Notes under the pieces: model-generated
What the model was told of the DNA's origin: nothing
Seen by the model: the letters and a program-made list of their open reading frames with translations, nothing else
The model's database searches: none
Virus record (IMG/VR): IMGVR_UViG_3300025154_001315
Coordinates: 1-60,321 of that record
Origin: a virus
Taxonomy: Duplodnaviria > Caudoviricetes
DNA: 60,321 nucleotides
Reading direction: 5' to 3' (one strand)
Translations under genes and position numbers: made by a program
Shown: positions 4,136 through 60,321 of the stretch, one piece after another
Layout: each line of letters begins with the position of its first letter
Numbering within the stretch: position 1 is the stretch's first letter

Positions 4136-4465
4136 ATGATTACCGCCAAGACCAACAAGACGGAAGCGCAGTACACCATCGGCTACATCAAGGAAGCAAT
4201 ACAAGACATGAAGCCTGAGGGCTACAAGCAGACCGATGTGGATGGCGCGCTGGCTAAGCTGGCGGCGGTCAAAGGCGACGAGACGGTTAGCTTCACACGA
4301 TGGGAAGCGGACATCGTATGGTGGTGTCTCTACCACATGCTGGATGCCAGCAACGAAATCCTCTGCAATTCGTTGGAGGGGCAGCTCTCCGAGGGGCTGG
4401 CCCCCTACCGCGGACACACCGACGTCTGCCCGACCTGTGGGCAGCTCACCAACACCAAGTCCTAG
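4136..4465 (+). CDS. Hypothetical protein with C-terminal CPTCG
   Basis: AGGAGG RBS; followed by a terminator. Confidence 0.7.
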   Translation: MITAKTNKTEAQYTIGYIKEAIQDMKPEGYKQTDVDGALAKLAAVKGDETVSFTRWEADIVWWCLYHMLDASNEILCNSLEGQLSEGLAPYRGHTDVCPTCGQLTNTKS

Positions 4466-4485
4466 CGCCCGGCCGACGCTAGGAC

Positions 4486-4522
4486 TGCCCCGCCCGCTAG
4501 CACAGGGGCGGGGCTTTTCTTT
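4486..4522 (+). terminator. Intrinsic terminator
   Basis: GCCCCGCCC..GGGCGGGGC followed by TTTTCTTT. Confidence 0.75.
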
Positions 4523-4528
4523 GCTCGC

Positions 4529-5068
4529 GTAGCACGATTCTTGACAATCGTGCTACTCCAGTCATTAAGCAGATTCGTCGAGTTTGCGTGTAAAGTTCCT
4601 TTACACTGATCCTAAAGCCCGATCGACGATCCGCCACCCGAGCTCGACGTATCGATCATACGAGTGAACGAGGTACGACGATCAATCCTCGTCCATCCAA
4701 GAGCGAAGTGCGAAGAGCCGAGTCCCATCTCCCTCCGCCAGAGCTCGAAGTGTCCGGGAAACACGAACTTGACAGTCAGATCCTGAGTTCTTGGACTCCA
4801 AGATCTGAATTCGTCATTTCCTCATACGATCGCGGACGAGTTTGACAGTCTGAGAGCGTAGATCTACATTCCCAGGTCCGAATTCGTCGTTTCCTCGACT
4901 GATCGTAGATCTTGGCTCGTGGTTCGAGGATCTTGGGACCTGGGAGCGGAGATCTTGGCTCTTGGTTGGCGGGATCTCAGTTCTCGGGTCGTCGAATCTG
5001 AAGATCCGGGAAAGTTGACAGCCGGATGCGATAAGATCTAAGATCTAAGTTCCAAATTCGTCAGAATC
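4529..5068. other. Non-coding TC/GA-saturated block with ~17 GATC sites and TTGACA..AATTCGTC modules
   Basis: No ORF >=60 aa; GATC sites counted by eye; 73 bp-spaced degenerate repeat (4769/4842, 4807/4880). Confidence 0.85.
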
Positions 5069-5311
5069 GGGGGTGCGTAATGTAGTGCGCGGGGTGGGTG
5101 CGTACTTTACGCACCTAAAGTAGTGTGTAAGCAAGGTGTGTGCTAGGCTGCTTTGCCCGCGCACTACCATTAGCAAGCGGCCCGTGGGGCAGGGTGCTTG
5201 GCACTTGGCACCCCGGCTGCACTACAGCCCGGCAACGTTGCAGCAACGCGCCCCGGCCTAGGGGCGTGCCACCCCACTTGCAGTTAACCCGTACCATACA
5301 AAGGTAACAAC

Positions 5312-5833
5312 ATGGCCAAGCACACCACCACCACCACCACCACCACTGGCAAGGGCAAGCGCGTGCCCGTGCCCAACGCCAAGCCCCAGGCGCCCGCCAA
5401 GCAGGCCCCGGCCGCCGCGCCCGTGGCCCCGGCCAGCCCCAGCACGGCCGCCGCGCTGGGCAACGCGCCCCTGGGGCAGCCGCCCGCCAGCGTGGCCCCG
5501 CAGGCCAGCCCCGCCCCCCGGTACTTGGCGCTGGCGGGCGTGGCGGCCCTGGCCGGGGACGTGGCCCTGGCCGTGTTGTACAGCGGGGGCAACCCCAAGC
5601 GCGGCAACCCCAAGCCCGGCCAGCCCCGCAGCGCCAGCCAACAGGCGTGGTTGCTGTACGCCGGGTGCGCCACCGTGGGCGCCTACCGCGCGGCCGTGCA
5701 GGCGTACGTGGCCAGCGGCGCCATGCCCTTGCTGGGCCACTGCACCAACGCCAACGCCAACTTGGCGTGGGACGCGGCCCACGGGCTGGTTGCCCTGGGC
5801 GGCGCGGCCCCCCGCACCCTGCCCAGCAAGTAG
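5312..5833 (+). CDS. NPKR..TV..AWD..H domain protein with Thr/Ala/Pro/Lys-rich N-terminus (paralog of 40050..40313)
   Basis: AAGGT RBS; no Glu, 2 Asp; motifs shared with the 40 kb protein. Confidence 0.85.
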   Translation: MAKHTTTTTTTTGKGKRVPVPNAKPQAPAKQAPAAAPVAPASPSTAAALGNAPLGQPPASVAPQASPAPRYLALAGVAALAGDVALAVLYSGGNPKRGNPKPGQPRSASQQAWLLYAGCATVGAYRAAVQAYVASGAMPLLGHCTNANANLAWDAAHGLVALGGAAPRTLPSK

Positions 5834-5847
5834 CGGTTAACCCCTAG

Positions 5848-5882
5848 TGCGCCCCGGCCAACACTGGCCGGGGCGCTTTGTT
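5848..5882 (+). terminator. Intrinsic terminator or attenuator
   Basis: GCGCCCCGGCCA-ACAC-TGGCCGGGGCGC followed by TTTGTT. Confidence 0.7.
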
Positions 5883-5891
5883 AGGTACCCC

Positions 5892-6200
5892 ATGGCCCAA
5901 TGCACTTGCCACCCTGGCCCCCACCAGCCCGGCACCACGGCCCCCGGCTGCCCCACCTGTACCGCCTGCCCCACCTGCCAAGCACCACACTACCACCCCG
6001 CGCAAGCCATACCCTACGGCGTTTGCCCCATAGCGGGCGGCTGCCCCACCTGCCGCTACCCCAACAGCAACCCGTGGCCCCCGCAGTGCCCCTGGTTGTT
6101 GGGCACGGGCCCCAAGCCCAACGCCCCGCAGTGCCACACGGGCCCCTGCCCCCTTTGCCACCTGGGGCACCACGGGTGTTGCGGCTGTAGCGCCCCGTAG
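5892..6200 (+). CDS. Cys/His/Pro-rich metallothionein-like small protein
   Basis: TAGGT RBS; repeated CPTC; no Asp or Glu; both Ile encoded by ATA. Confidence 0.7.
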   Translation: MAQCTCHPGPHQPGTTAPGCPTCTACPTCQAPHYHPAQAIPYGVCPIAGGCPTCRYPNSNPWPPQCPWLLGTGPKPNAPQCHTGPCPLCHLGHHGCCGCSAP

Positions 6201-6216
6201 CGCGTAGTGCGTAGCT

Positions 6217-6251
6217 GCCCGGCCCCCTGCCCAGGGGGCCGGGCTTTTTTT
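6217..6251 (+). terminator. Strong intrinsic terminator closing the TC-free cassette
   Basis: GCCCGGCCCCCTG..CAGGGGGCCGGGC followed by T7. Confidence 0.9.
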
Positions 6252-6430
6252 GTGCCCGTTTTTGGTTTGGCACAACACCTGCTCACTCTCCGGCTTATTG
6301 GAGAGGAGTTCTATGGACGAAGTCCCGAGAACGAAGACCGAGGAACCTTCCCCGAGCCCCGAGCCCCGAGCCCAGACCTCCCAGCCAAGCCCCTTGCACC
6401 TCGTCCGTCAGCGGTGCTAGCTTGTAGCGC

Positions 6431-6922
6431 ATGGATCAAGACGTCATTGTAGAAGCCAAGTTCCTCGTCAGGCCCGCTGAGCCGGACGACTTCGCCTTCA
6501 TCTTCTCCACTTGGCTGAAGAGCTACCGGTACAACAACCAGGACGTCTCCCGCGTCCCGGCCGAGCTCTACTACCGCAAACACCACGAGGTGATTGCCCG
6601 GCTGCGTGACCGCTGCGCCCTCCCAGTCGCCTGCCTCCCTGATTCACCCGCTGTGATCATCGGCTTCGCAGCGCTGGAGCTGCCCCCGGCCCTGCTGAAC
6701 ACCTCCTCTCTCCCACCGCCCGCTCCGGCGCCTCCCGTCATCCACTGGGTCTACGTGAAGCGCGCGTGGCGGCGGATGGGCGTGGCCACTCGGCTTCTCG
6801 GGCAACTCTCCCCCTCCGCCTGCTGCCACTCCCACTGGACCAGCGCCATCCACCCCTGGGCTCACGTCAAGTGGTCCGGCCTCCGCTACGATCCGTACTT
6901 GCAGGTCACCCCGCAGTCCTAG
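6431..6922 (+). CDS. GNAT-family acetyltransferase
   Basis: VRPAEPDD start; IHWVYVKRAWRRMGVATRLL acetyl-CoA-binding motif A. Confidence 0.8.
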   Translation: MDQDVIVEAKFLVRPAEPDDFAFIFSTWLKSYRYNNQDVSRVPAELYYRKHHEVIARLRDRCALPVACLPDSPAVIIGFAALELPPALLNTSSLPPPAPAPPVIHWVYVKRAWRRMGVATRLLGQLSPSACCHSHWTSAIHPWAHVKWSGLRYDPYLQVTPQS

Positions 6923-7189: not shown

Positions 7190-7537
7190 ATGGCCAAGTT
7201 ACTCGTCGAGAACATCGCTCGCATCACTCACGAAGCGAACCGCGCCTACTGCCTCGCCCTGGGGGACAAGAGCCAGCTTCCGTGGGACGAAGCGCCGCAG
7301 TGGCAGCGCGACTCCGCCATCAACGGTGTGCGACACACCCTGGAGCACCCGAGCGCTCCGCCCTCCGTCTCTCACGACTCCTGGCTCGCCGAGAAGAAAG
7401 CGGCGGGGTGGAAGTACGGACCCGTCAAGGATCCGGAGAAGAAAGAGCACCCCTGCTTCGTGCCCTACGAGGAGCTTCCCGAGGATCAGAAGCTCAAGGA
7501 CACGCTGTTCCAGAACGTCGTCCGCAGCTTCATCTAG
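7190..7537 (+). CDS. RyR-domain protein
   Basis: HDSWLAEKKAAGWKYGPVKDPEKKEHPCFVPYEELPEDQKLKD. Confidence 0.85.
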   Translation: MAKLLVENIARITHEANRAYCLALGDKSQLPWDEAPQWQRDSAINGVRHTLEHPSAPPSVSHDSWLAEKKAAGWKYGPVKDPEKKEHPCFVPYEELPEDQKLKDTLFQNVVRSFI

Positions 7538-37071: not shown

Positions 37072-37274
37072 TCCGTTCGGAAGTCGCCGCCGTCGTACAG
37101 CCTGCGGAGCGCGCCTTCAATGTCCATCAGCTTGGTGAGCTTCTTTCCTAGGTCGTCCTCGTTCGCGGCGGGGCACAGCCCGTAGCTGACGGCGGCCTTG
37201 CGGTGCATCCGCAAGAGCTGTTGGAAGCCGTGCTTCTGCGCCAGCGCCACCTCCCGTTCTGCGTCCGTCTTCAC
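37068..37274 (-). CDS. Hypothetical protein
   Basis: GGAGG RBS, GTG start. Confidence 0.6.
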   Translation of the reverse strand: MKTDAEREVALAQKHGFQQLLRMHRKAAVSYGLCPAANEDDLGKKLTKLMDIEGALRRLYDGGDFRTE

Positions 37275-37468
37275 GGTTGCACCTCCCGCATGTCCATCAC
37301 CTCGCCCCCGTTGAGCTGCCGCACCAGCTCCTCCACCACGCAGCACCAGAACTCCCGGCCGGGGCTGTGGCGGGGGAACTCCAGCGCCACCTCCGCTGCC
37401 ACCCGGCGCGCGGTGAGGGGGTGATGTTCCTTCAGCATCCTGACGGCCTGCTTCTTTGCGTCTTCCAC
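37271..37468 (-). CDS. Hypothetical protein
   Basis: AGGAGG RBS. Confidence 0.6.
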   Translation of the reverse strand: MEDAKKQAVRMLKEHHPLTARRVAAEVALEFPRHSPGREFWCCVVEELVRQLNGGEVMDMREVQP

Positions 37469-37526
37469 GATGTTCCTCCTACGGTGAGGGCGGGGCCGCG
37501 CGGCCCCGCCCGTTGGTCTGCCAGAC

Positions 37527-38606
37527 CTACGCCTTCACCTCGACCTGCTTCAGCAGCGACGACGCGCGCTTCTCCAGGTCCAGCCGGTCGTCGTTCCACT
37601 TCATGCTGTGGGCGTGGCCCGTCAGGCCCTGCACCACGCCCCACAGGCTCCGGGGGTTCAGCCCCGGCTCCTCGCTGGCGATGCGGAAGGCCTCCTGCGC
37701 CTGCTTGGGGCTGAAGCCCCTGGCCTGGACCCAGGCGTAGGTGTCCTCGTCCGTCTTCGCCACCTCCAGGGCGCGCGCAGCCTTCACCGCCGCCGCGACG
37801 GGGGACACCTTCGCCTCCAGGTACTTCTGGAGCGCCGGCTTCGCCTCCGCCATGTAGCGGCGGGGGCCGCCGCTGCTGTGGCGGATGCGGAGGTCCAGGG
37901 CGAGGTCGAAGCCCCAGATGATGCGGTTGTCGCAGATGCGGTTGTAGTAGAACAGCGTGAGGAAGAAGGCCCCCGCGCCCACCTCGCTGTTGCCGATGAT
38001 GAGGCCCTTGTAGAGCGCCGACTTGCCGGGGATGTCGATGGGGTGGCTGTCGTCCACGAGGCAGATGAAGACGTCCCGGTCGCTGGCGTACAGGGTCGTC
38101 GCCTTCTTGGGGTCGGTCTTGGCGTAGCTGGCGCTGGGCACCTTCCACACGCCCAGGTCCATGTGCTCCAGCACGGCGCCGCTGGCGTCAGCGTCGTAGA
38201 TGCGCCCGTAGGTCGGGCTGGTGAAGCACGACGCGCTCCACGCCTTGCCGTCGTTGCGGAGCAGGGTCTTGCTGTTGTTCTCCTCCGCCCGCCCCAGGCT
38301 GTGCTGGAGCGGTACGATGGCCACCTCCGCCGGCAGGCTGCGGAGGTAGCTGGCGGGGGCGTGGGCGCGGGAGCAGAGCTGGCCGAACGCCCAGTTGTTG
38401 AGACGCGTGGGAACCTTCTTCGCCTTGTCCTGGATGGACACCTCGCCGTCCTTCGCGCTCAGCTCCATGGCCCGCAGGTCCAGCACGCGCTCCAGGCTCT
38501 TTTCCTTCTTCTGCAGGTTGTACTCGTGGAGGGCCTTCATGCTGAGGAAACGCTGGTCGTCGGGCCTCGTGCTCCACTCCTTGTTCAACCGCATGTCGTT
38601 CGACAT
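37527..38606 (-). CDS. DUF932-family protein
   Basis: EWSTRPDDQRFLS, WAFGQLC, YGRIYD, LYASDRDVF, NSEVG, CDNRIIWG motifs; own promoter and downstream hairpin. Confidence 0.8.
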   Translation of the reverse strand: MSNDMRLNKEWSTRPDDQRFLSMKALHEYNLQKKEKSLERVLDLRAMELSAKDGEVSIQDKAKKVPTRLNNWAFGQLCSRAHAPASYLRSLPAEVAIVPLQHSLGRAEENNSKTLLRNDGKAWSASCFTSPTYGRIYDADASGAVLEHMDLGVWKVPSASYAKTDPKKATTLYASDRDVFICLVDDSHPIDIPGKSALYKGLIIGNSEVGAGAFFLTLFYYNRICDNRIIWGFDLALDLRIRHSSGGPRRYMAEAKPALQKYLEAKVSPVAAAVKAARALEVAKTDEDTYAWVQARGFSPKQAQEAFRIASEEPGLNPRSLWGVVQGLTGHAHSMKWNDDRLDLEKRASSLLKQVEVKA

Positions 38607-40049: not shown

Positions 40050-40313
40050 CTAGTAGAGCTCGATGAAGTTGTGGTCGGTGTCCCAGGCGATGGCGGCGGC
40101 GCTGCCCCCGGCCTCCTTGAACTGCGCGACGGTCATGCCGTTCTTGTAGAGCTTGAAGAGGTCGAAGCTCTTGGAGCCCGCGCGCTTGGGGTTCTCCTTG
40201 GTGAGCAGCTTGATCTTCTTGCCGTCCAGGTCCTTCTCGGCCTTCTTCTGGTCCTCGCCGGCCTTCGCCACCTTCGCCGCCGCCTTCACGACCTGCTTCT
40301 CGGTCTTCGCCAT
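40050..40313 (-). CDS. NPKR..TV..AWD..H domain protein (short form; in-frame C-terminus of 40050..40883)
   Basis: GAGGAG RBS with ATG at 40313; embedded TTGCAA-17-TACAAC at 40390-40362. Confidence 0.8.
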   Translation of the reverse strand: MAKTEKQVVKAAAKVAKAGEDQKKAEKDLDGKKIKLLTKENPKRAGSKSFDLFKLYKNGMTVAQFKEAGGSAAAIAWDTDHNFIELY

Positions 40314-40883
40314 GACTTGCTCCTCGGTAGTGGAGGGCGGAATGCCCTCACGCTGAGTACTGTTGTACTGCTCCCGCTCCTGCTTTGCAAGCGTTTCCAA
40401 CTCCAACTCCTTGTCCAGTTGCGCTTGCAATTCCGCCTCGCGGCCCTGGGCCTTGCCCCAAGTCCGCTCGATCTTGTTGTCCGCCCCCACGTCCACGATG
40501 CCGACCTTGGGGAGCCCCTGCGGCTTGCACTTGGGGCACAGGGCTTGGTACTTCTCCACGGAGACTTCGGTGATCATCGTCCCGCAGCGCCGGCACATCT
40601 TGTTCCGCACGTTGTACAGGCGCAGGCACTCCTTGCAGGTCACGGTCTCGGGGTTGTTGGCGCCGCCCCAGGCCAGCACCTCCCCGATGTAGCGGGGCCC
40701 GTAGTTGCTGCACAAGGGCCGCTCCGCCGGCCCGAAGTGCCGCTGCTGATCGGTGGGGCAGAAGTGGATGGGCATCCCCACCAAGGGCTTGGCCTTCCGC
40801 TTGGCGGGGGTGGGCACCTTGGCGGCCTCGAAGACCTCGGCGGCCATGCGCTTGGCGGCGCGCTTCTTTGCATCCGTCTTCAT
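40050..40883 (-). CDS. Zn-finger protein fused in frame to the NPKR domain (long form)
   Basis: GAGGAGG RBS; three CxxC pairs; no stop before 40050. Confidence 0.65.
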   Translation of the reverse strand: MKTDAKKRAAKRMAAEVFEAAKVPTPAKRKAKPLVGMPIHFCPTDQQRHFGPAERPLCSNYGPRYIGEVLAWGGANNPETVTCKECLRLYNVRNKMCRRCGTMITEVSVEKYQALCPKCKPQGLPKVGIVDVGADNKIERTWGKAQGREAELQAQLDKELELETLAKQEREQYNSTQREGIPPSTTEEQVMAKTEKQVVKAAAKVAKAGEDQKKAEKDLDGKKIKLLTKENPKRAGSKSFDLFKLYKNGMTVAQFKEAGGSAAAIAWDTDHNFIELY

Positions 40884-49894: not shown

Positions 49895-50106
49895 TTCACA
49901 CCCCAGCGTTGAATTGCGTCCATCATCTTCACGTCGCACGGGCTCTCGTGACCCCACTGACCCTGTGTGGCGTGTGCAGCGACGCGATACCAGCACCACA
50001 TCACCAGCGACTTTGGCAGGTGCCACGCGATCCAGATGGTCGCCCTCTGGACAAGGCGCCGCCGCAAGGCGCCTGCCTCCCACAACTTCCACTTGAGCCA
50101 CTTCAT
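49891..50106 (-). CDS. Small Trp-rich protein
   Basis: AAGGAGG RBS; coupled. Confidence 0.6.
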   Translation of the reverse strand: MKWLKWKLWEAGALRRRLVQRATIWIAWHLPKSLVMWCWYRVAAHATQGQWGHESPCDVKMMDAIQRWGVK

Positions 50107-51194
50107 CACTTGGCCTCCTTCTTCGGGTGCGCCGCCAGCCACGTCGCCGCCGCCAGCTTCCAGTCGGTGGCGATGCAGCCCTCCAGGTAGCCCGCGTCCC
50201 GGTTCTTCCAGGCGTTCCACAGGGGCGCGGCCACGAACTTCCACCACGGGTGCGTGAAGCTGCTGACCTGCACCTCCTGCCCGCCGTCAAACAGCAGGAA
50301 GAACGTCTCCAGGTCCTGGTGCCAGTAGTGGAGCTGGTCCTGGCGGTGGCAGGAGTTGTCCGGGTCGACGAACATGGGCTGCGGCTTCACCGCCCCCAGC
50401 GCGTAGGGGCTGCGCTCCTGGTAGACGCTCGGGCTCCACCCCGCCTTGATGCGCTCCCACACCTTGCCGCCCTCGCCCCCGGTGTAGACGTGGAGGCTGT
50501 CCGAGAACTGGACGTAGGTGCCCACCTCCAAGCCCAGGCGGGCGGCCATGTACTCCTGGAGGATGGAGAAGTGGACGACGTTGGCCCCGTAGGCGCCCCA
50601 GATGAGGTCGTTGCTGCGGTTGCAGACGGTCATGTTAAGCCGCCCGTCCCTCACCTTGAAGTAGGCGTTCGTGTTGCAGGGTATGTCAGTGCTGTCGATC
50701 CCCGCCTCCACGTGCGTCCCGTAGTCCACTCCGTGCAGGTCGTACGGGGGGCGCCACATCTGGAGCACTGCGCGCCTACTGTCGGGCTTCTGCTTCAGGT
50801 GGTTCACCAGGAAGTCGAGCTGGTCCACCCCGAACGCCTTGCGCCAACGGTAGCCGTAGCTCCCCTGCATCCTGTGGCCGTCGTCGCTGTAGTTGCGGAA
50901 CTTGGGGACCAAGTACTCCATGAACCGCACATCGTCGCGACCGGCGAGGAGCCACAGAGACTCGAACAGGTGGAGGAAGGGGTTGGCATCCCGCTCCTTG
51001 TAGAACAGCACCCGCTCCAGGGGGCGTTCGTAGTACGTGGCCACCGGCTCGTCGAACTCCAGGGTGTCCCCGTTGCGGCTAGTCTGCCGGTGCCAGCTCG
51101 TACCCTCGCCCTTGTCCTCACCCTCGTCGTACTCCAGCAGCATGAACAGCACCTTCCGCAGCGCGTCGTTGACACCTCGTGCGTGGATCTCCAT
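50106..51194 (-). CDS. Thymidylate-synthase-fold enzyme, probable dUMP hydroxymethylase
   Basis: SRNG, YGYRW, DSRRAV, catalytic IPCN, RSND..GAYGAN (Asn, dUMP-type), SLHVY. Confidence 0.85.
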   Translation of the reverse strand: MEIHARGVNDALRKVLFMLLEYDEGEDKGEGTSWHRQTSRNGDTLEFDEPVATYYERPLERVLFYKERDANPFLHLFESLWLLAGRDDVRFMEYLVPKFRNYSDDGHRMQGSYGYRWRKAFGVDQLDFLVNHLKQKPDSRRAVLQMWRPPYDLHGVDYGTHVEAGIDSTDIPCNTNAYFKVRDGRLNMTVCNRSNDLIWGAYGANVVHFSILQEYMAARLGLEVGTYVQFSDSLHVYTGGEGGKVWERIKAGWSPSVYQERSPYALGAVKPQPMFVDPDNSCHRQDQLHYWHQDLETFFLLFDGGQEVQVSSFTHPWWKFVAAPLWNAWKNRDAGYLEGCIATDWKLAAATWLAAHPKKEAK

Positions 51195-51655
51195 CACTTC
51201 ACCTCCCTGCGAATGCCGACCATTCCGTAGTTCCACAGCCCGAAGAAGTGCCTGTCCTGCGCCCTGTCGGCCAGCCGCTTCAGCCCGAGGATGTCATCCA
51301 GCGCGGCCACCGGCACGCCATCGATCATGTACGCCCTGCCGGCGTTGAGATAGCGTTGGCGCAGCCCGCTCGCGGGGATGTAGTCCACCTTGATGCCGTC
51401 GATCTCCGTTGTCGCGCTGCCCTCGGTGGAGCCCTTCGCCAACTTGGCCTCGATGCCCTCGCCACTCGGGGCCTTGGTCACCAGGAAGTCGATGTCGCCC
51501 GGGATGACGTCGAACCCCAACATCCACAGCGCCGCCGTTCCGATCAGCACGCCCGTCGCGCTGTCGTCCTTCCTCAGCAGGATGTGAGCCTTCTTGATGA
51601 CTTCGCGGCCAACCTCAGCTTGCTTGCACAGCTTCATTTCGTTCATCTCCATCAC
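51194..51655 (-). CDS. Pol-beta-superfamily nucleotidyltransferase-like protein
   Basis: IGTAA..GDIDF..KVD..LK....RAQD. Confidence 0.7.
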   Translation of the reverse strand: MMEMNEMKLCKQAEVGREVIKKAHILLRKDDSATGVLIGTAALWMLGFDVIPGDIDFLVTKAPSGEGIEAKLAKGSTEGSATTEIDGIKVDYIPASGLRQRYLNAGRAYMIDGVPVAALDDILGLKRLADRAQDRHFFGLWNYGMVGIRREVK

Positions 51656-51656
51656 T

Positions 51657-52427
51657 TCACCCCTTCTTCAGCGCCTTGGCCCACTGCACCCTCACGTCCA
51701 TCATCCCAGCCTCCATGCCGGTCCACGCCTTCTTCTCCCGCACCGTCACGGCGTGGGGGTACATCGCAGCCAGCCTGCGGGCACTGTCCGTCTGGCAGGG
51801 GGTGGTCCTCCAGGTGGAGCACCCGCCCTGGACGTTGCTCGGGCCTGCGTTCAGTCGGTACTCCAGGCTGAGGCGGTTGGGCAGCCCGGCGGACAGGAGC
51901 TGCAGAGTCATGTTGAAGTCCTCCATCGTGGCCACGTCCTTGGCCAGCCCCTTGCCGAAGGTGGCCTTGGCGTCCATCACCATCGGCACGTTGTAGGCCA
52001 GCGCGTACATCATCCGCTTGCACTCCAGCCACATCTCCGTGCTGGCCCAATAGGCGGTCCGCACCATCCAGCCGCAGTGGGCGCGCACGTCGAGCGTCTT
52101 CTCCAGCCAGTTGAAGGCGCCCACCATCTGCTGGTCCGTGGCGTTCTTGATCTTCATGTCGGCGCGTCGCACCTGGATGGTCAGGTCGTCGTCCAGCATG
52201 ACGAACTTCTGGATATCCTGCTCCGCGCAGTAGCGCAGGATGTAGTCGCGCGTGGCGGTGATGCCCTTGGCCTTGCACCAGAGCACGTTGCGCCCCCTGC
52301 TCTGGTGGCTGGGCGCCTCGCTGGGCGGGCACACCAGCTTCGTGTGCCTCTTCACGGCGTCGGGCAGTCGGTCGTAGGTCCACTGCCGGTCCACTCGGTT
52401 CATCGTCGGGATGAATACGTTGATCAC
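51657..52427 (-). CDS. GT-A glycosyltransferase, TAGT/GREB1/JGT-like
   Basis: VFIPTMNR, GITATRDYI, MLDDD, EDFNMTLQLL, GGC motifs. Confidence 0.8.
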   Translation of the reverse strand: MINVFIPTMNRVDRQWTYDRLPDAVKRHTKLVCPPSEAPSHQSRGRNVLWCKAKGITATRDYILRYCAEQDIQKFVMLDDDLTIQVRRADMKIKNATDQQMVGAFNWLEKTLDVRAHCGWMVRTAYWASTEMWLECKRMMYALAYNVPMVMDAKATFGKGLAKDVATMEDFNMTLQLLSAGLPNRLSLEYRLNAGPSNVQGGCSTWRTTPCQTDSARRLAAMYPHAVTVREKKAWTGMEAGMMDVRVQWAKALKKG

Positions 52428-53015: not shown

Positions 53016-53969
53016 TTAGGCTATCTCGATACCGTTGCGCTCATGGGGGCGCTGATGGGGCGGGAGGTAGGTGGAGCGCGGCTTGCCCACGCCAGTCACC
53101 ACCTTCATTCGCTTTGCGTGTTCACAGAGACAGAATTGGACGTCGTGAGCGCTGAGCGTGCCGCTGTTCGGGAACCACTTCGTCCAGTTCTGGTTCACCA
53201 GCACGCGGAGGGCCACGACCTCCTCCAGCCACGTGTGCGAGTTGAGCGTGAAGTCCGGGTCGCGGCCCGCGATGTAGTTGAGCCCACGCCGCGCCCCCGG
53301 CCCCACCGGGGTCCAGGTCTCCTCGTCCCAGAACAGACCGGGGTAACAGAGGATGAAGTCCTGGAGGACCTCCTTCACCATGAAGCCGGTGCCACCGAAC
53401 CCCTCCAGCTTCATCATCTCCTCCCCCAGCGCCGCCCAGCTCGGGCTCTTGAACTTGAGCAGCGGAGCCAGCCGCTCCTTGTAGGCCGCCGCCAAGCCGC
53501 TCAGGTAGTCCACCACCACATCCTCCTTGGGCTCCTTCCGGCCGCCGTTGGTTATGACGTAGGCTCCGGTGAACACCTCCTGCCGCACGCGCACCCGCTT
53601 GTGGGGCCCGCGCACCCGCTCCACAGGGCTCTGGAGGCGCTCCTTGGCCACGCGCAGCACGCGGGCAGCCTGCCACCTTGCCTGCCAGCCAACAGCCTGT
53701 GCGAACCCTGCCGTTCCGAAGTACCTAAAGGTAGCGCAGTTGAGCAACGCCTGCTCGTACTTCCCCGGCTTGACGTTGGCCTTGTAGATGGCGAGGAAGG
53801 CCTGCGTCGTGCGGTCGTTCACGCGGCGGACATTGGTGAAGCTGTACTTCTGCAGGATCTCATCCTTGGTCCAGGGCCACGGCGCCCCGCTCTCCTTCTT
53901 GAGCCGGATGTTCTCGCGCTCGTGGATGTAGTAGAGGAACTTCTTGATGCCTTCGCTGCTAGCCTTCAT
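53016..53969 (-). CDS. aGPT-Pplase1 / 5-hmdU DNA kinase helical-domain family protein
   Basis: ERENIRLKKESG..PWTKDEILQKYSFTNVRR.NDRTT; GPGARRGL; QFCLCE. Confidence 0.85.
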   Translation of the reverse strand: MKASSEGIKKFLYYIHERENIRLKKESGAPWPWTKDEILQKYSFTNVRRVNDRTTQAFLAIYKANVKPGKYEQALLNCATFRYFGTAGFAQAVGWQARWQAARVLRVAKERLQSPVERVRGPHKRVRVRQEVFTGAYVITNGGRKEPKEDVVVDYLSGLAAAYKERLAPLLKFKSPSWAALGEEMMKLEGFGGTGFMVKEVLQDFILCYPGLFWDEETWTPVGPGARRGLNYIAGRDPDFTLNSHTWLEEVVALRVLVNQNWTKWFPNSGTLSAHDVQFCLCEHAKRMKVVTGVGKPRSTYLPPHQRPHERNGIEIA

Positions 53970-54616
53970 CGCTCACCTCGTACGTAGATGGCCGTCGTGT
54001 GCCACAACTTCTCGTTGTCCAGCTTCGGCGGCTTGAGCCACCTGAAGCCCTGCTCCTGCAACTCCACGTCCAACAGGTTGGCCGCCTCCCACTGCCCCTT
54101 CTTCTGTAGATGGTACTCGATGAGCACCGCCTGGAGCCGCTTGGGCAGCGCCCGGCCCAACAGCAGGTCGTACTCGGCGCCCTCGCAGTCCATCTTGAGC
54201 ACGGTGAAGCTACACAGCTTGAGCAGCGCCCCCATGCGGACCACCGTCACCGGCACGGGCTCCCGCCCGCGCGTGGGGACCGTGCTGTGGCTCCCCTTGT
54301 TCGGGCCAGGGCTGGTCCACAGGGGGATGGTCGCCCCTTGGTAGCTGTCACCCACCACCGCGCAGTTCATGGGGCGGACGTTGTGGCCGATGTTCCGCTT
54401 GAGCAGCGCGTAGTTCTCGGGCTCGGGCTCCACCGCCGTCACGGACTTGCACTGCTCCCCCGCCCACTGCGCGTAGCTGCCGATGTTGGCGCCGATGTCC
54501 AGCACCACGTCGGACTTGCCCAGCGGGAGGCGCTGGTAGCCCTTGAGCTCGTTGATGACGTACTTGTCCATCGTACCGGGACGGACCCAGTAAGTCTTGT
54601 AGGCGTCGTACTTCAT
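53966..54616 (-). CDS. FkbM-family SAM methyltransferase
   Basis: VLDIGANIG, EPEPENY, LKMDCEGAEY. Confidence 0.9.
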   Translation of the reverse strand: MKYDAYKTYWVRPGTMDKYVINELKGYQRLPLGKSDVVLDIGANIGSYAQWAGEQCKSVTAVEPEPENYALLKRNIGHNVRPMNCAVVGDSYQGATIPLWTSPGPNKGSHSTVPTRGREPVPVTVVRMGALLKLCSFTVLKMDCEGAEYDLLLGRALPKRLQAVLIEYHLQKKGQWEAANLLDVELQEQGFRWLKPPKLDNEKLWHTTAIYVRGER

Positions 54617-55119
54617 AGCACCTCCTCCAGCTTCGCCACGTCCACGCGCCCAAGGTGGATGAGCTGCTCCATCAGCCATTTGTCGCGGGGGCTGCGACTG
54701 GCGTAGGTGTCCTCCGCGTAGAGCACCGTGTTGATGCCGTTGGCCAGCACCACGTCCTTGAAGCACTGCGGGCAGGGGATGTGCGTGCAGATGAGGGCAG
54801 TGTTGATGCTGCCCATGTTGACCCCGGCCAGCAGCGCCTTGCGGGCGGCGTTGACTTCCGCGTGGATGACGAGGTCGTACTTGGTGAGGTAGAACATGTG
54901 CCCCAGCTTGTCGTCCACCTCGCCCGTGCGGTTGTTCCACAGCGACTCGTCCTCCTCCACCCCAGGCGGGAAGCCGTTGTAGCCGAGGTGAACGCTGCCC
55001 GTCGCGGCGTCGTAGATGGCCGCCCCCACCTTGGTCGAGGGGTCCTTGCTCCGGCTCTCCGCCCACAACCGGCAGATGGCCATCACCGACTCCGGCACGC
55101 CCAGCTTGCTCTTCAGCAT
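54613..55119 (-). CDS. dCMP deaminase
   Basis: SKDPSTKVGA, GYNGFP, HAEVNA, PCPQC; GGAGG RBS at the internal ATG. Confidence 0.9.
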   Translation of the reverse strand: MLKSKLGVPESVMAICRLWAESRSKDPSTKVGAAIYDAATGSVHLGYNGFPPGVEEDESLWNNRTGEVDDKLGHMFYLTKYDLVIHAEVNAARKALLAGVNMGSINTALICTHIPCPQCFKDVVLANGINTVLYAEDTYASRSPRDKWLMEQLIHLGRVDVAKLEEVL

Positions 55120-55184
55120 CACTTGCCTCCCTTCGGGTACGACGCGCGCCACGCATAGCCCCGCGCCTTCTGCTTCGCTATCAT

Positions 55185-55225
55185 CGCCTTGATCTTGCGC
55201 GGCTGGGCCGCGCAAGATCAAGGCG
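55185..55225. repeat. Perfect 19 bp inverted repeat with 3 nt loop
   Basis: CGCCTTGATCTTGCGCGGC-TGG-GCCGCGCAAGATCAAGGCG. Confidence 0.9.
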
Positions 55226-55550
55226 GCCACCGGGCGAACCTCCACCACGCGGCGCTTCAATACGCGTCCGCCGCGCAGGCGGTCGGCGTCCTTCTTCGCG
55301 TACTGTGCGTCCTCCAACGCCTCCTGCGCCACGCGCTTCTGCGTCGCGAGCTGCTGCTTCAGCAGCTTCGCCTCCTCGCGCAGCCGCACGACCTCCGCTT
55401 TCAGCCCTTCGAAGTTCATGTCGTACTTCACACCCTGCACCTTCGGGCGCGGCTTGAAGCCCTGGCAGGTTCCCCTTCCGGCACTGCCAATCGGCACCCT
55501 GTCCTCGCCGGCCGCGCTGCATCCGCCATCGCAGTCCTTGCAGTTCATTG

Positions 55551-55802
55551 TCACGCCTCCTTGAGCGCCGACAGCCGCTTGCGGTCCAGCACCTGGATGA
55601 CCCCGTAAGCCTTGCAGGGCCCCAGCACACCCTCGGCACGCTATCTGTTGATAATGGTGCTGGTAAAGCTCCGGTTGCAGCCCGCCATCTCCGCGAGCTT
55701 AGCCTGCGTCACGCGCACCACCCCGTCCTCCACCGGCACCTCCACTGCGTCCAGGGGGTAGCCCAGCTTAGTCAACATCCCAACCAGTTCGCTTAGCTTC
55801 AT
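55551..55802 (-). pseudogene. Crp/MrpC-like HTH protein interrupted by an in-frame TAG (55643-55641)
   Basis: TQAKLAEMAGCNRSFTSTIINR*RAEGVLG..IQVLDRKRL; the domain pattern continues past the stop. Confidence 0.7.
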
Positions 55803-60083: not shown

Positions 60084-60321
60084 CTACATCCTGAACTCGT
60101 CGGCCTCTGCGCGCGTCATGAAGAAGTGAATGCCTTGGGCGCACTCCACGCGGATGTCGTCGCTGTAGCCGTCGGGCTCAGCCACCTCGCCCACGCGGTA
60201 GGTGCAAGTGGGCGCGTACTGGGAGGTGAACTCCTTGGCCTCCGTGCCGAGGGCTTCCAGCACCTTCACCCTGCTCGCCCTGCACTTGCGTCCGACGAGG
60301 CTGCTGGTCCGCCTGGCATCG
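60084..60321 (-). CDS. 3' part of the pentapeptide-repeat/DUF5758-like gene (joins 794..7)
   Basis: YRVGEVAEPDGYSDDIRVECAQGIHFFMTRAEA. Confidence 0.85.
   Translation of the reverse strand, partial: DARRTSSLVGRKCRASRVKVLEALGTEAKEFTSQYAPTCTYRVGEVAEPDGYSDDIRVECAQGIHFFMTRAEADEFRM

Follow-up and report, generated by a model that had tools for sequence, protein, structure and literature searches.

Several phages that replace thymine by 5-hydroxymethyluracil (5-hmU) and then partly hypermodify it have been described, and a characteristic set of genes is attributed to them (PMC8989533, PMC5889632). Restriction sites that resist cleavage in phages M6, ViI, and phiW-14 implicate TG and TC as the context recognized by the kinase of these systems (PMC6449724), and the modification alpha-dapT is found predominantly at TG, to a lesser extent at TC, and seldom at TT or TA (PMC13458397). 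A further study reports that Escherichia coli RNA polymerase transcribes 5-hmU templates 3.5-fold better than thymine templates, that bulky adducts block transcription, and that kinase-phosphorylated 5-hmU cuts output to 37% of that from unmodified DNA (PMC6457204). Here, we analyzed a complete virus record of 60,321 nucleotides (nt) with a G+C content of ~65% (IMGVR_UViG_3300025154_001315; hereafter, the window), which carries the gene set of these phages and in which an island of 1215 nt, at positions 5068-6282, is almost free of the dinucleotides TC and GA. The first gene of this island encodes a small protein, P1, with a domain that we named NPKR. The window shares its kinase, thymidylate-synthase (TS)-family enzyme, dCMP deaminase, and HD hydrolase with the kinase systems of M6, ViI, phiW-14, SP10, PaMx11, and SH-Ab 15599, the last of these with known modification at TG, and differs from the studied phages in having a TET-associated-glycosyltransferase (TAGT)-like protein where they have aminoacyl or polyamine transferases. 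Neither a motif-free island nor an NPKR protein has been described for the studied kinase phages, and PaMx11 had neither in our scan. A literature search found no paper on such islands or on this domain; supplementary tables and maps, which might bear on TC and TG, lay outside that search.

TC and GA together occur 7425 times in the 60,321 nt of the window (0.123 per nt), and ~150 would be expected within the island. We found no TC and two GA, at 5558 and 5771, which are the sole TC/GA between positions 5067 and 6283. Both are in-frame GAC codons, for residues D83 (5558-5560) and D154 (5771-5773) of the P1 open reading frame (ORF1; 5312-5833, plus strand), just as the original prediction, made by inspection of the sequence, had described this TC/GA-free cassette and its Asp-codon exceptions. 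The remaining dinucleotides are not depleted in the island, and TG has an observed/expected ratio of 1.72. The 384 nt of untranslated region (UTR) and spacers that make up its non-coding part hold no TC/GA at all. The island coincides with a predicted transcription unit that consists of a promoter (5015-5044), ORF1, a terminator-like hairpin with a weak T tract 3' of ORF1 (5849-5876), a second ORF (ORF2; 5892-6200), and a strong terminator-like hairpin followed by seven T (6217-6244), all on the plus strand. It begins ~25 nt past the last promoter and ends ~40 nt past the second terminator.

A cluster of sigma-70-like promoters immediately precedes the island, in a non-coding stretch that is rich in GATC (4541-5044, plus strand). 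The plus strand of the genome has seven TTGACA hexamers, of which four, at 4541, 4769, 4842, and 5015, lie within the 480 nt upstream of the island, and a scan found promoter-like sites at 4842-4870 and 5015-5044 with 10/12 matches each, where 0.2 sites would be expected. The repeat units of this cluster are 73 nt apart. Seventeen GATC sites fall within ~435 nt (4608-5042) versus 167 genome-wide, and the island directly downstream contains none. The window segment 4600-5045 also holds six of the ten AGATCT copies of the genome, its GATC and AGATCT sites being placed in three repeated promoter-like units (TTGACAG ... AGATCT ... GAATTCGTC).

P1 has 173 amino acids (aa), with a disordered Ala/Pro/Thr-rich N-terminus followed by the NPKR domain (approximately residues 85-163). 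When we re-encoded P1 with the codon usage of the genome, 2000 simulations gave a mean of 30.6 TC/GA and a minimum of 15, compared with the two observed. Because re-encoding never yielded fewer than 15, the avoidance of TC/GA is not a by-product of the composition of P1. All nine Ser codons are AGC, and the G+C content at third codon positions (GC3) is 0.98. P1 contains no Glu, no Phe, no Ile, and only two Asp; the preferred codons for Glu, Phe, and Ile in this genome contain GA or TC. TC/GA avoidance thus acts at three levels, namely on synonymous codons, on amino acids, and on non-coding DNA.

The other NPKR protein considered here, P2, is a 277-aa protein encoded at 40050-40883 on the minus strand, with a normally coded NPKR domain at its C-terminus (40053-40223). 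We used a profile of this domain and three relatives to recover 99 proteins, from which a family hidden Markov model (HMM) was built; P1 and its relative P0006 were excluded from it. The domain spans ~55 aa, is predicted to adopt a beta-alpha-alpha-alpha-beta, winged-helix-like arrangement, and has conserved positions N-P-K-R, F/Y-x-L-Y, G-M-T-V, a-D-[VIL]-x-W-D, and F-I. In the NPKR loop after the first strand, Asn and Pro are present in 99/99 members, Lys in 95, and Arg in 98; the Asp of the 'aD' motif is present in 89/99, and that of the WD motif in 88/99, with Asn in four members and Glu in another four. Searches of Pfam, PHROGs, and NCBIfam assigned no family to the domain or to P1, and the domain has no entry in the Protein Data Bank (PDB).

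We searched the HMM against 817 sequences, comprising the 816 six-frame ORFs of the window and P0006. P2 ranked first, followed by P0006 (E = 6.5e-11, 37.9 bits) and the ORF of P1 (E = 3.6e-4, 16.3 bits); the next sequence had E = 1.3. An alignment of small P1 and P2 profiles with hhalign gave a probability of 61% (E = 8e-5), and unguided MAFFT lined up the NPKR, LY, TV, and WD motifs of the two proteins. In Smith-Waterman comparisons of P1 with P2, the domain-only score was reached by 4-10 of 2000 shuffled sequences and the full-length score by 130 of 2000. Together, these results make it very probable that P1 belongs to the NPKR family and indicate that it is a distant paralog of P2 rather than a recent copy. 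The original prediction that the cassette protein is a paralog of the 40-kb protein was therefore right about the shared domain and significant in the profile comparison it had proposed, and it overstated how close the two are, since P1 is nearest to insertion-bearing proteins elsewhere. The NPKR domain of P1 has a long insertion between helix 2 and helix 3, and its best non-self phmmer matches are insertion-bearing NPKR proteins of other phages, including an island protein described below (G001), with P2 not listed. This subfamily assignment is based on the shared insertion and on phmmer ranks rather than on a tree, for which the domain is too short.

The supposed common start of the two proteins, MAK with a Lys/Ala-rich tail, did not stand up. 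P2 has a basic N-terminus, weak zinc-ribbon matches, an acidic coiled stretch, a Lys/Ala linker, and then the C-terminal NPKR domain. Its start is supported by a GAGGAGG ribosome-binding site (RBS) and by an in-frame GC3 of 0.90 over codons 1-189; because both features support the 277-aa frame, the 'MAK' of P2 is an internal Met, and the Lys/Ala stretch is a linker. When 1.84 billion representatives were searched exhaustively with phmmer, P0006 emerged as the only real relative of P1 (187 aa, 53% identity, E = 8e-16). P0006 contains one Asp, in the WD motif, and no Glu, Phe, or Ile, a composition which suggests that its gene is likewise TC/GA-free. Word-based searches of viral contigs with P1, P0006, and the 87-aa tail of P2 gave no matches, nor did a search of the protein database with the P2 tail or a metagenome scan for the P1/P0006 family.

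At the conserved positions of the family, P1 departs from its relatives as TC/GA avoidance predicts. In the MAFFT alignment, Ile is replaced by Leu or Ala, Phe by Trp or Leu, and the final Glu by Ala. The NPKR sequence occupies residues 94-97 and is followed by a duplicated NPKP; a tandem 15-nt duplication (5588-5617, plus strand) encodes GNPKR-GNPKP and is the source of the doubled NPK motif, which P0006 lacks; the corresponding loop of P0006 reads CPKR. The aromatic-x-L-Y helix is W113-L-L-Y116, and the following C-A-T121-V122 keeps Thr and Val of the GMTV motif, while its Gly-Met is replaced; the change from Met-Thr to Ala-Thr removes the ATG|ACN junction that creates a GA. The third-helix motif reads A-N-L-A-W-D, in which the first Asp has become Asn, in P0006 as well, and the WD Asp (D154) is retained. 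D83, the other exception, had been matched with an Asp at the start of the paralogous domain, and this detail proved incorrect: D83 is not conserved in P0006, and MAFFT places it opposite a Gly of P2.

Structure models gave the two domains a common topology. For P2, the model has strands at 33-36 and 84-86 and helices at 48-55, 62-67, and 72-80, with a pLDDT above 90; for P1, strands at 85-88 and 160-162 and helices at 108-117, 122-134, and 147-156 were predicted with a pLDDT of 70-92, from an input alignment that contained the family. Foldseek reached a TM-score of ~0.5 solely to the winged-helix-like insert domain of MetAP2/Ebp1, and its single match in BFVD was gp18 of phage PhiJL001 (E = 7e-6). 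The best match of the NPKR profile among PDB sequences had E = 0.47, and Pfam helix-turn-helix models found no match in P1, P2, or the family members.

Similar islands occur in other phages. We scanned viral contigs with the family alignment, which yielded 80 NPKR loci, and then searched these loci, followed by 25 whole records, for islands in 400-nt windows and 10 strand-symmetric dinucleotide classes. Four records stood out: the window itself (G000; TC/GA, log10 P = -21), G001 (TC/GA, -31; 0 observed versus 72 expected), G004 (TG/CA, -15.6; 8 versus 58), and G015, which is also locus L143 and is depleted of both TC/GA (-18.8; 1 versus 47) and TG/CA (-14.4; 4 versus 45). The strongest depletion in any other record was log10 P ~ -10; a partial TC/GA depletion in G003 (13 versus 48, log10 P = -8.5) lies within this range. 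An NPKR ORF is located inside all four islands and the partial one of G003, and those of G001, G004, and G015 match the HMM with E values of 2e-11 to 2e-15. All four islands are in kinase-positive records, and none of the five kinase-negative records has one. The island-bearing phages identified so far all come from groundwater metagenomes.

The exceptions within the ORFs of these islands fall on conserved residues again. G001 has four: one TC, the codons for both conserved Asp, and the ATG|ACG Met-Thr junction of the GMTV motif. In the ORF of G015, a TC/GA exception occurs solely at the WD Asp, and among its exceptions for TG are the WD Trp and the start ATG; in the G004 ORF, the WD Trp is replaced by Phe, and the exceptions include Met codons. 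The WD Asp had been called essential. The GA retained there in P1, the corresponding exceptions in G015 and G001, and its conservation in the family agree with an important residue; because Asn or Glu takes its place in a few of the 99 members, it is not absolutely required. The clearest recoded pair is in G015, where a normally coded close paralog lies 1.3 kb from the recoded copy (Smith-Waterman score 198). The 80 loci contain 94 NPKR ORFs, whose TC/GA density relative to background has a median of 0.97, with only three ORFs at or below 0.38; recoding is therefore the exception in this family. A 213-nt run free of both TC/GA and TG/CA in L004 was not counted as an island, as it is non-coding, G/C-rich, and of low complexity. 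The non-coding parts of other islands contain repeated words of the CTAGC/TTAGC type, such as CTAGCTAGTTAGCTAGG in G015 and GGTTAGCGGTTAGCG in G004, which could be operators or unusual promoters; they are situated at ~37260-37620 in G015, at the end and start of G004, and at ~6580-6640 in L073.

The window phage appears to encode a thymidine-hypermodification set consisting of a kinase, a dUMP-hydroxymethylase-like TS, and a TAGT-like glycosyltransferase, and the expectation that it carries genes of the hmdU pathway was borne out. These genes are on the minus strand: a homolog of the 5-hmdU DNA kinase (53016-53969; PF18723, E = 1.8e-27, above cut-off), a divergent TS-family protein that is a candidate dUMP hydroxymethylase (50106-51236; PF00303, E = 2.2e-20), the TAGT-like protein (51657-52427; PF20691), and a protein with a dCMP/cytidine deaminase domain match (54613-55554). 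The TS-family protein scores far under the NCBIfam thymidylate-synthase equivalog cut-offs, scores that cannot separate hydroxymethylase from methylase.

Gene content and gene order link the NPKR family to the 5-hmdU DNA kinase pathway. The kinase model matched 20 of 33 NPKR-bearing viral records (4/5 plus 16/28), which were picked by length (at least 38 kb) or interest, with L006 left out, and 12 of the 17 that are at least 90% complete. By comparison, tblastn with the window kinase as a single query matched 30 of 50,697 phage records, so that the predicted co-occurrence with modification genes was observed. Its best match was gp19 of PhiJL001, which adjoins the NPKR protein gp18. A kinase gene was present in the flank of 27 of the 80 NPKR loci, on the same strand in 27/27 and within 1 kb in 23/27, and in 23 of the 27 loci holding both, the NPKR gene immediately precedes the kinase gene, as it does in PhiJL001. 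The two genes are 12 kb apart in the window. In L065 (9799-11172 and 9953-10294) and L027 (1158-2893), NPKR and kinase frames overlap by ~300 nt, and a fusion, a frameshift, or nested genes are possible there.

The dinucleotides missing from the islands, TC and TG, are the published contexts of hypermodification. Because the avoidance is symmetric on both strands, its cause would be at the level of DNA rather than RNA. We infer that TC is the dinucleotide context marked for hypermodification by the kinase of this phage, and we somewhat favor the view that what the island avoids is the context of the phage's own modification. The thymines of the island would then stay plain 5-hmU or T, and the rest of the chromosome would be decorated. 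Host RNA polymerase would read the island from incoming virion DNA, starting at the upstream sigma-70-like promoters, whose match to consensus suggests early expression; the early output would be P1, perhaps together with the Cys/His-rich product of ORF2. P1 would subsequently work on hypermodified DNA or together with it, for which binding to decorated DNA, partnership with the kinase, and assistance to the polymerase are options, and normally coded NPKR paralogs such as P2 would be produced later. Selection against TC/GA was strong enough to swap out Glu, Phe, Ile, and one conserved Asp. In our judgment, it is an even call whether the cassette is an island exempt from hypermodification, from which an NPKR protein can be expressed early. 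An early 'pioneer' role of the NPKR protein is possible, with the odds leaning somewhat against it. Rather unlikely in its full extent, and offered tentatively, is a general model in which kinase phages carry islands stripped of TC, TG, or both, these islands are the sole plain-5-hmU parts of the injected chromosome, and the island NPKR protein reads hypermodified thymine and licenses or organizes expression of the decorated genome as a pioneer factor.

Several observations weigh against this explanation. The assignment of TC as the kinase context of this phage would derive from the island itself and from other phages. The promoter cluster upstream of the island is very rich in TC/GA and GATC; such promoters would be heavily modified in virion DNA, which is awkward for the idea of a block to the polymerase unless only elongation is affected. 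The remaining early genes and the replication genes have a normal TC/GA density, yet need to be expressed. Among the 20 kinase-positive genomes in the scan, 16 lack a strong island, one of them, G003, showing partial depletion only, and islands are thus optional in kinase phages; the dinucleotide scan found none in PhiJL001 or in the experimentally studied PaMx11, both kinase-positive. In G001, the TC/GA-rich flank is downstream rather than upstream of the island, and a search for sigma-70 promoters ahead of that island found none. With regard to the protein, BLASTP detected no similarity between P1 and P2 (E = 16), and the HMM score of P1 is modest. The topology common to the two structure models is not independent evidence, because the alignment for P1 included the family. 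The best Foldseek match of the P2 domain in PDB was not significant (E = 0.4), so that no solved fold speaks for DNA binding by the NPKR domain; this function, like recognition of modified thymine or assistance to RNA polymerase, is a conjecture from gene order, domain fusions, and the basic or low-complexity tails of the proteins. Finally, many of the records in which NPKR and kinase genes co-occur may be related phages, and their counts are not independent events.

We considered other explanations. NPKR proteins could coat hypermodified TC/TG sites for protection, compaction, or silencing, with the island escaping binding by its own protein. The presence of an NPKR gene in every island and the link between the family and the kinase fit this idea, as do the Lys/Ala/Pro-rich linkers of many members, the match of the histone H1-like HC2 model to 2 of 68 members, and the one to six NPKR copies per genome. 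However, the N-terminus of P1 is Ala/Pro/Thr-rich and only weakly basic, and other NPKR paralogs of the same genomes are not exempt. We regard self-exemption as improbable.

Similarly unlikely, in our estimation, is an anti-defense leader cassette analogous to T7 gene 0.3, in which an island enters the cell first, evades host nucleases because recognition sites with TC/GA are missing and modification-dependent (type IV) enzymes because modified bases are missing, and encodes inhibitors of host defense. Tandem strong-looking host promoters ahead of a short terminated unit would suit such a leader, and a sequence without TC and GA cannot contain GATC, TCGA, GANTC, GAATTC, and the like. Nevertheless, this proposal accounts neither for the constant NPKR cargo nor for the place of the family beside the kinase gene, and P1, with its two acidic residues, is unlike acidic DNA mimics. 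It also requires an entry end, and the window, in which ~107 nt are identical near both ends (1-120 versus 60202-60321, with a 13-nt offset), is a circularly closed or terminally redundant assembly, which gives no position for a physical end; the G004 island is at a contig end only through a 127-nt assembly overlap. We abandoned the notion of the island as a marker of a physical end of the genome on the same grounds, namely the overlap of the window ends and the resemblance of the 127-nt repeat of G004 to an assembly overlap.

A third alternative places the cause in RNA, where a transcript without UC and GA would be spared by a phage or host endoribonuclease that shuts off mRNA, much as ACA-less mRNAs escape MazF. 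The depleted zone closely fits the predicted transcript, from just past the promoter to just past the terminator. Yet motif and complement are both avoided in G000, G001, and G004, and G015 lacks TC, GA, TG, and CA together, a pattern expected of a feature of double-stranded DNA, whereas an RNase could produce it only with two or four specificities that are unrelated to one another. We identified no RNase gene in the window. We consider this explanation very unlikely. Equally remote is the idea that the likeness of P1 to the NPKR family is a compositional accident and P1 unrelated to P2, as the low complexity of P1, its BLASTP result, and its full-length Smith-Waterman score would allow, since the profile matches both P0006 and P1 while no other six-frame ORF scores better than E = 1.3, MAFFT recovers the same motif order, and the island proteins of G001, G004, and G015 are clear family members.

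If the explanation that we prefer, avoidance of the phage's own modification context, is true, the local and near-total loss of a dinucleotide to the point of rewriting amino acids would be a new genomic signature. The modification specificity of an uncultured phage would then be readable from the dinucleotide that its island lacks, with TC predicted in the window phage and in G001, TG in G004, and the two together in G015. The widespread NPKR family would be a first candidate partner or reader protein of hypermodified thymine, and the islands would bear on how transcription gets under way early in infection from a phage chromosome that is so heavily decorated.

The second ORF of the island encodes 102 aa that include 22 Pro, 16 Cys, and 8 His, whereas acidic residues are absent; each of its two Ile is encoded by the rare codon ATA, and the ORF is preceded by an AGGT RBS-like site similar to that of ORF1. 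Searches of Pfam, PHROG, NCBIfam, and Atlas found no relatives. ORF2 may encode a metal-binding protein or may be a mere open frame that arises from constrained composition. The 5' UTR of the unit folds modestly better than shuffled sequences (z = -2.1), with 4 of 200 shuffles folding equally well, and an Rfam scan of 4400-6500 detected no family at threshold. Four DNA sequencing runs contained identical fragments with no variant letters, and are uninformative on the selection acting on the island. The window as a whole has a structural arm on the plus strand and a replication arm on the minus strand, which additionally encodes a family-A DNA polymerase, a PD-(D/E)XK nuclease, an SNF2 helicase, a primase-type protein, and an HD nucleotidase. 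A GNAT acetyltransferase-like ORF (6431-6922) and an RyR-domain ORF (7190-7537) are located just downstream of the island. A pentapeptide-repeat-like gene at 242-721 has 81.8% nucleotide identity to Rhizobium phage RHph_TM3_3_14B and is the sole megablast match to any catalogued phage within the first 25 kb.

Five large proteins of related phages carry the NPKR domain as a fusion, at L126:14222-17560 and L116:15071-17725 on the minus strand and at L161:6864-8666, L134:2936-5851, and L134:118-2715 on the plus strand. Four of them contain an ADP-ribosyltransferase domain (PF03496, E = 7e-9 to 6e-12), at least three of these with a tandem NPKR pair, and the fifth contains a NUDIX domain. These fusions would fit a role in host takeover or transcription without proving one. 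None of the genomes with large fusions has a motif-free island, and the fusions might deliver ready-made NPKR protein.

The closest parallels in other systems each share part of what we found. T4 Alt-type ADP-ribosyltransferases are injected, and the joining of tandem NPKR domains to an ADP-ribosyltransferase in the large proteins of related phages resembles them and suggests a role in host takeover; P1 and P2, unlike Alt, have no enzyme domain. The dinoflagellate/viral nucleoprotein (DVNP) family comprises small basic proteins of 5-hmU-rich genomes, which had prompted the suggestion of a dinoflagellate link; this likeness found no backing, as the Pfam model (PF19060) had no match at E <= 10 across the genome, nor did it match any of 68 NPKR family members. 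TF1 of phage SPO1 is an HU-type protein that prefers 5-hmU DNA, and it is comparable as a small phage protein proposed to handle its own modified-thymine DNA. A sequence relation to TF1 is absent: P1, P2, and the family members match no Pfam HU/IHF model, and the prediction for the NPKR domain is a monomeric unit with beta-alpha-alpha-alpha-beta topology. Phage genomes also avoid restriction sites, and the early leader of T7 with gene 0.3 (ocr) is an early, host-transcribed, terminated cassette. The island resembles both, in that short DNA words are lost under selection by DNA-targeting enzymes and in that it would be an early terminated cassette. Unlike in restriction-site avoidance, a whole dinucleotide rather than a site of 4-8 nt is purged over ~1.2 kb, forcing amino-acid changes, and instead of a host restriction site, the word that is avoided seems to be the context in which the phage modifies its own DNA.

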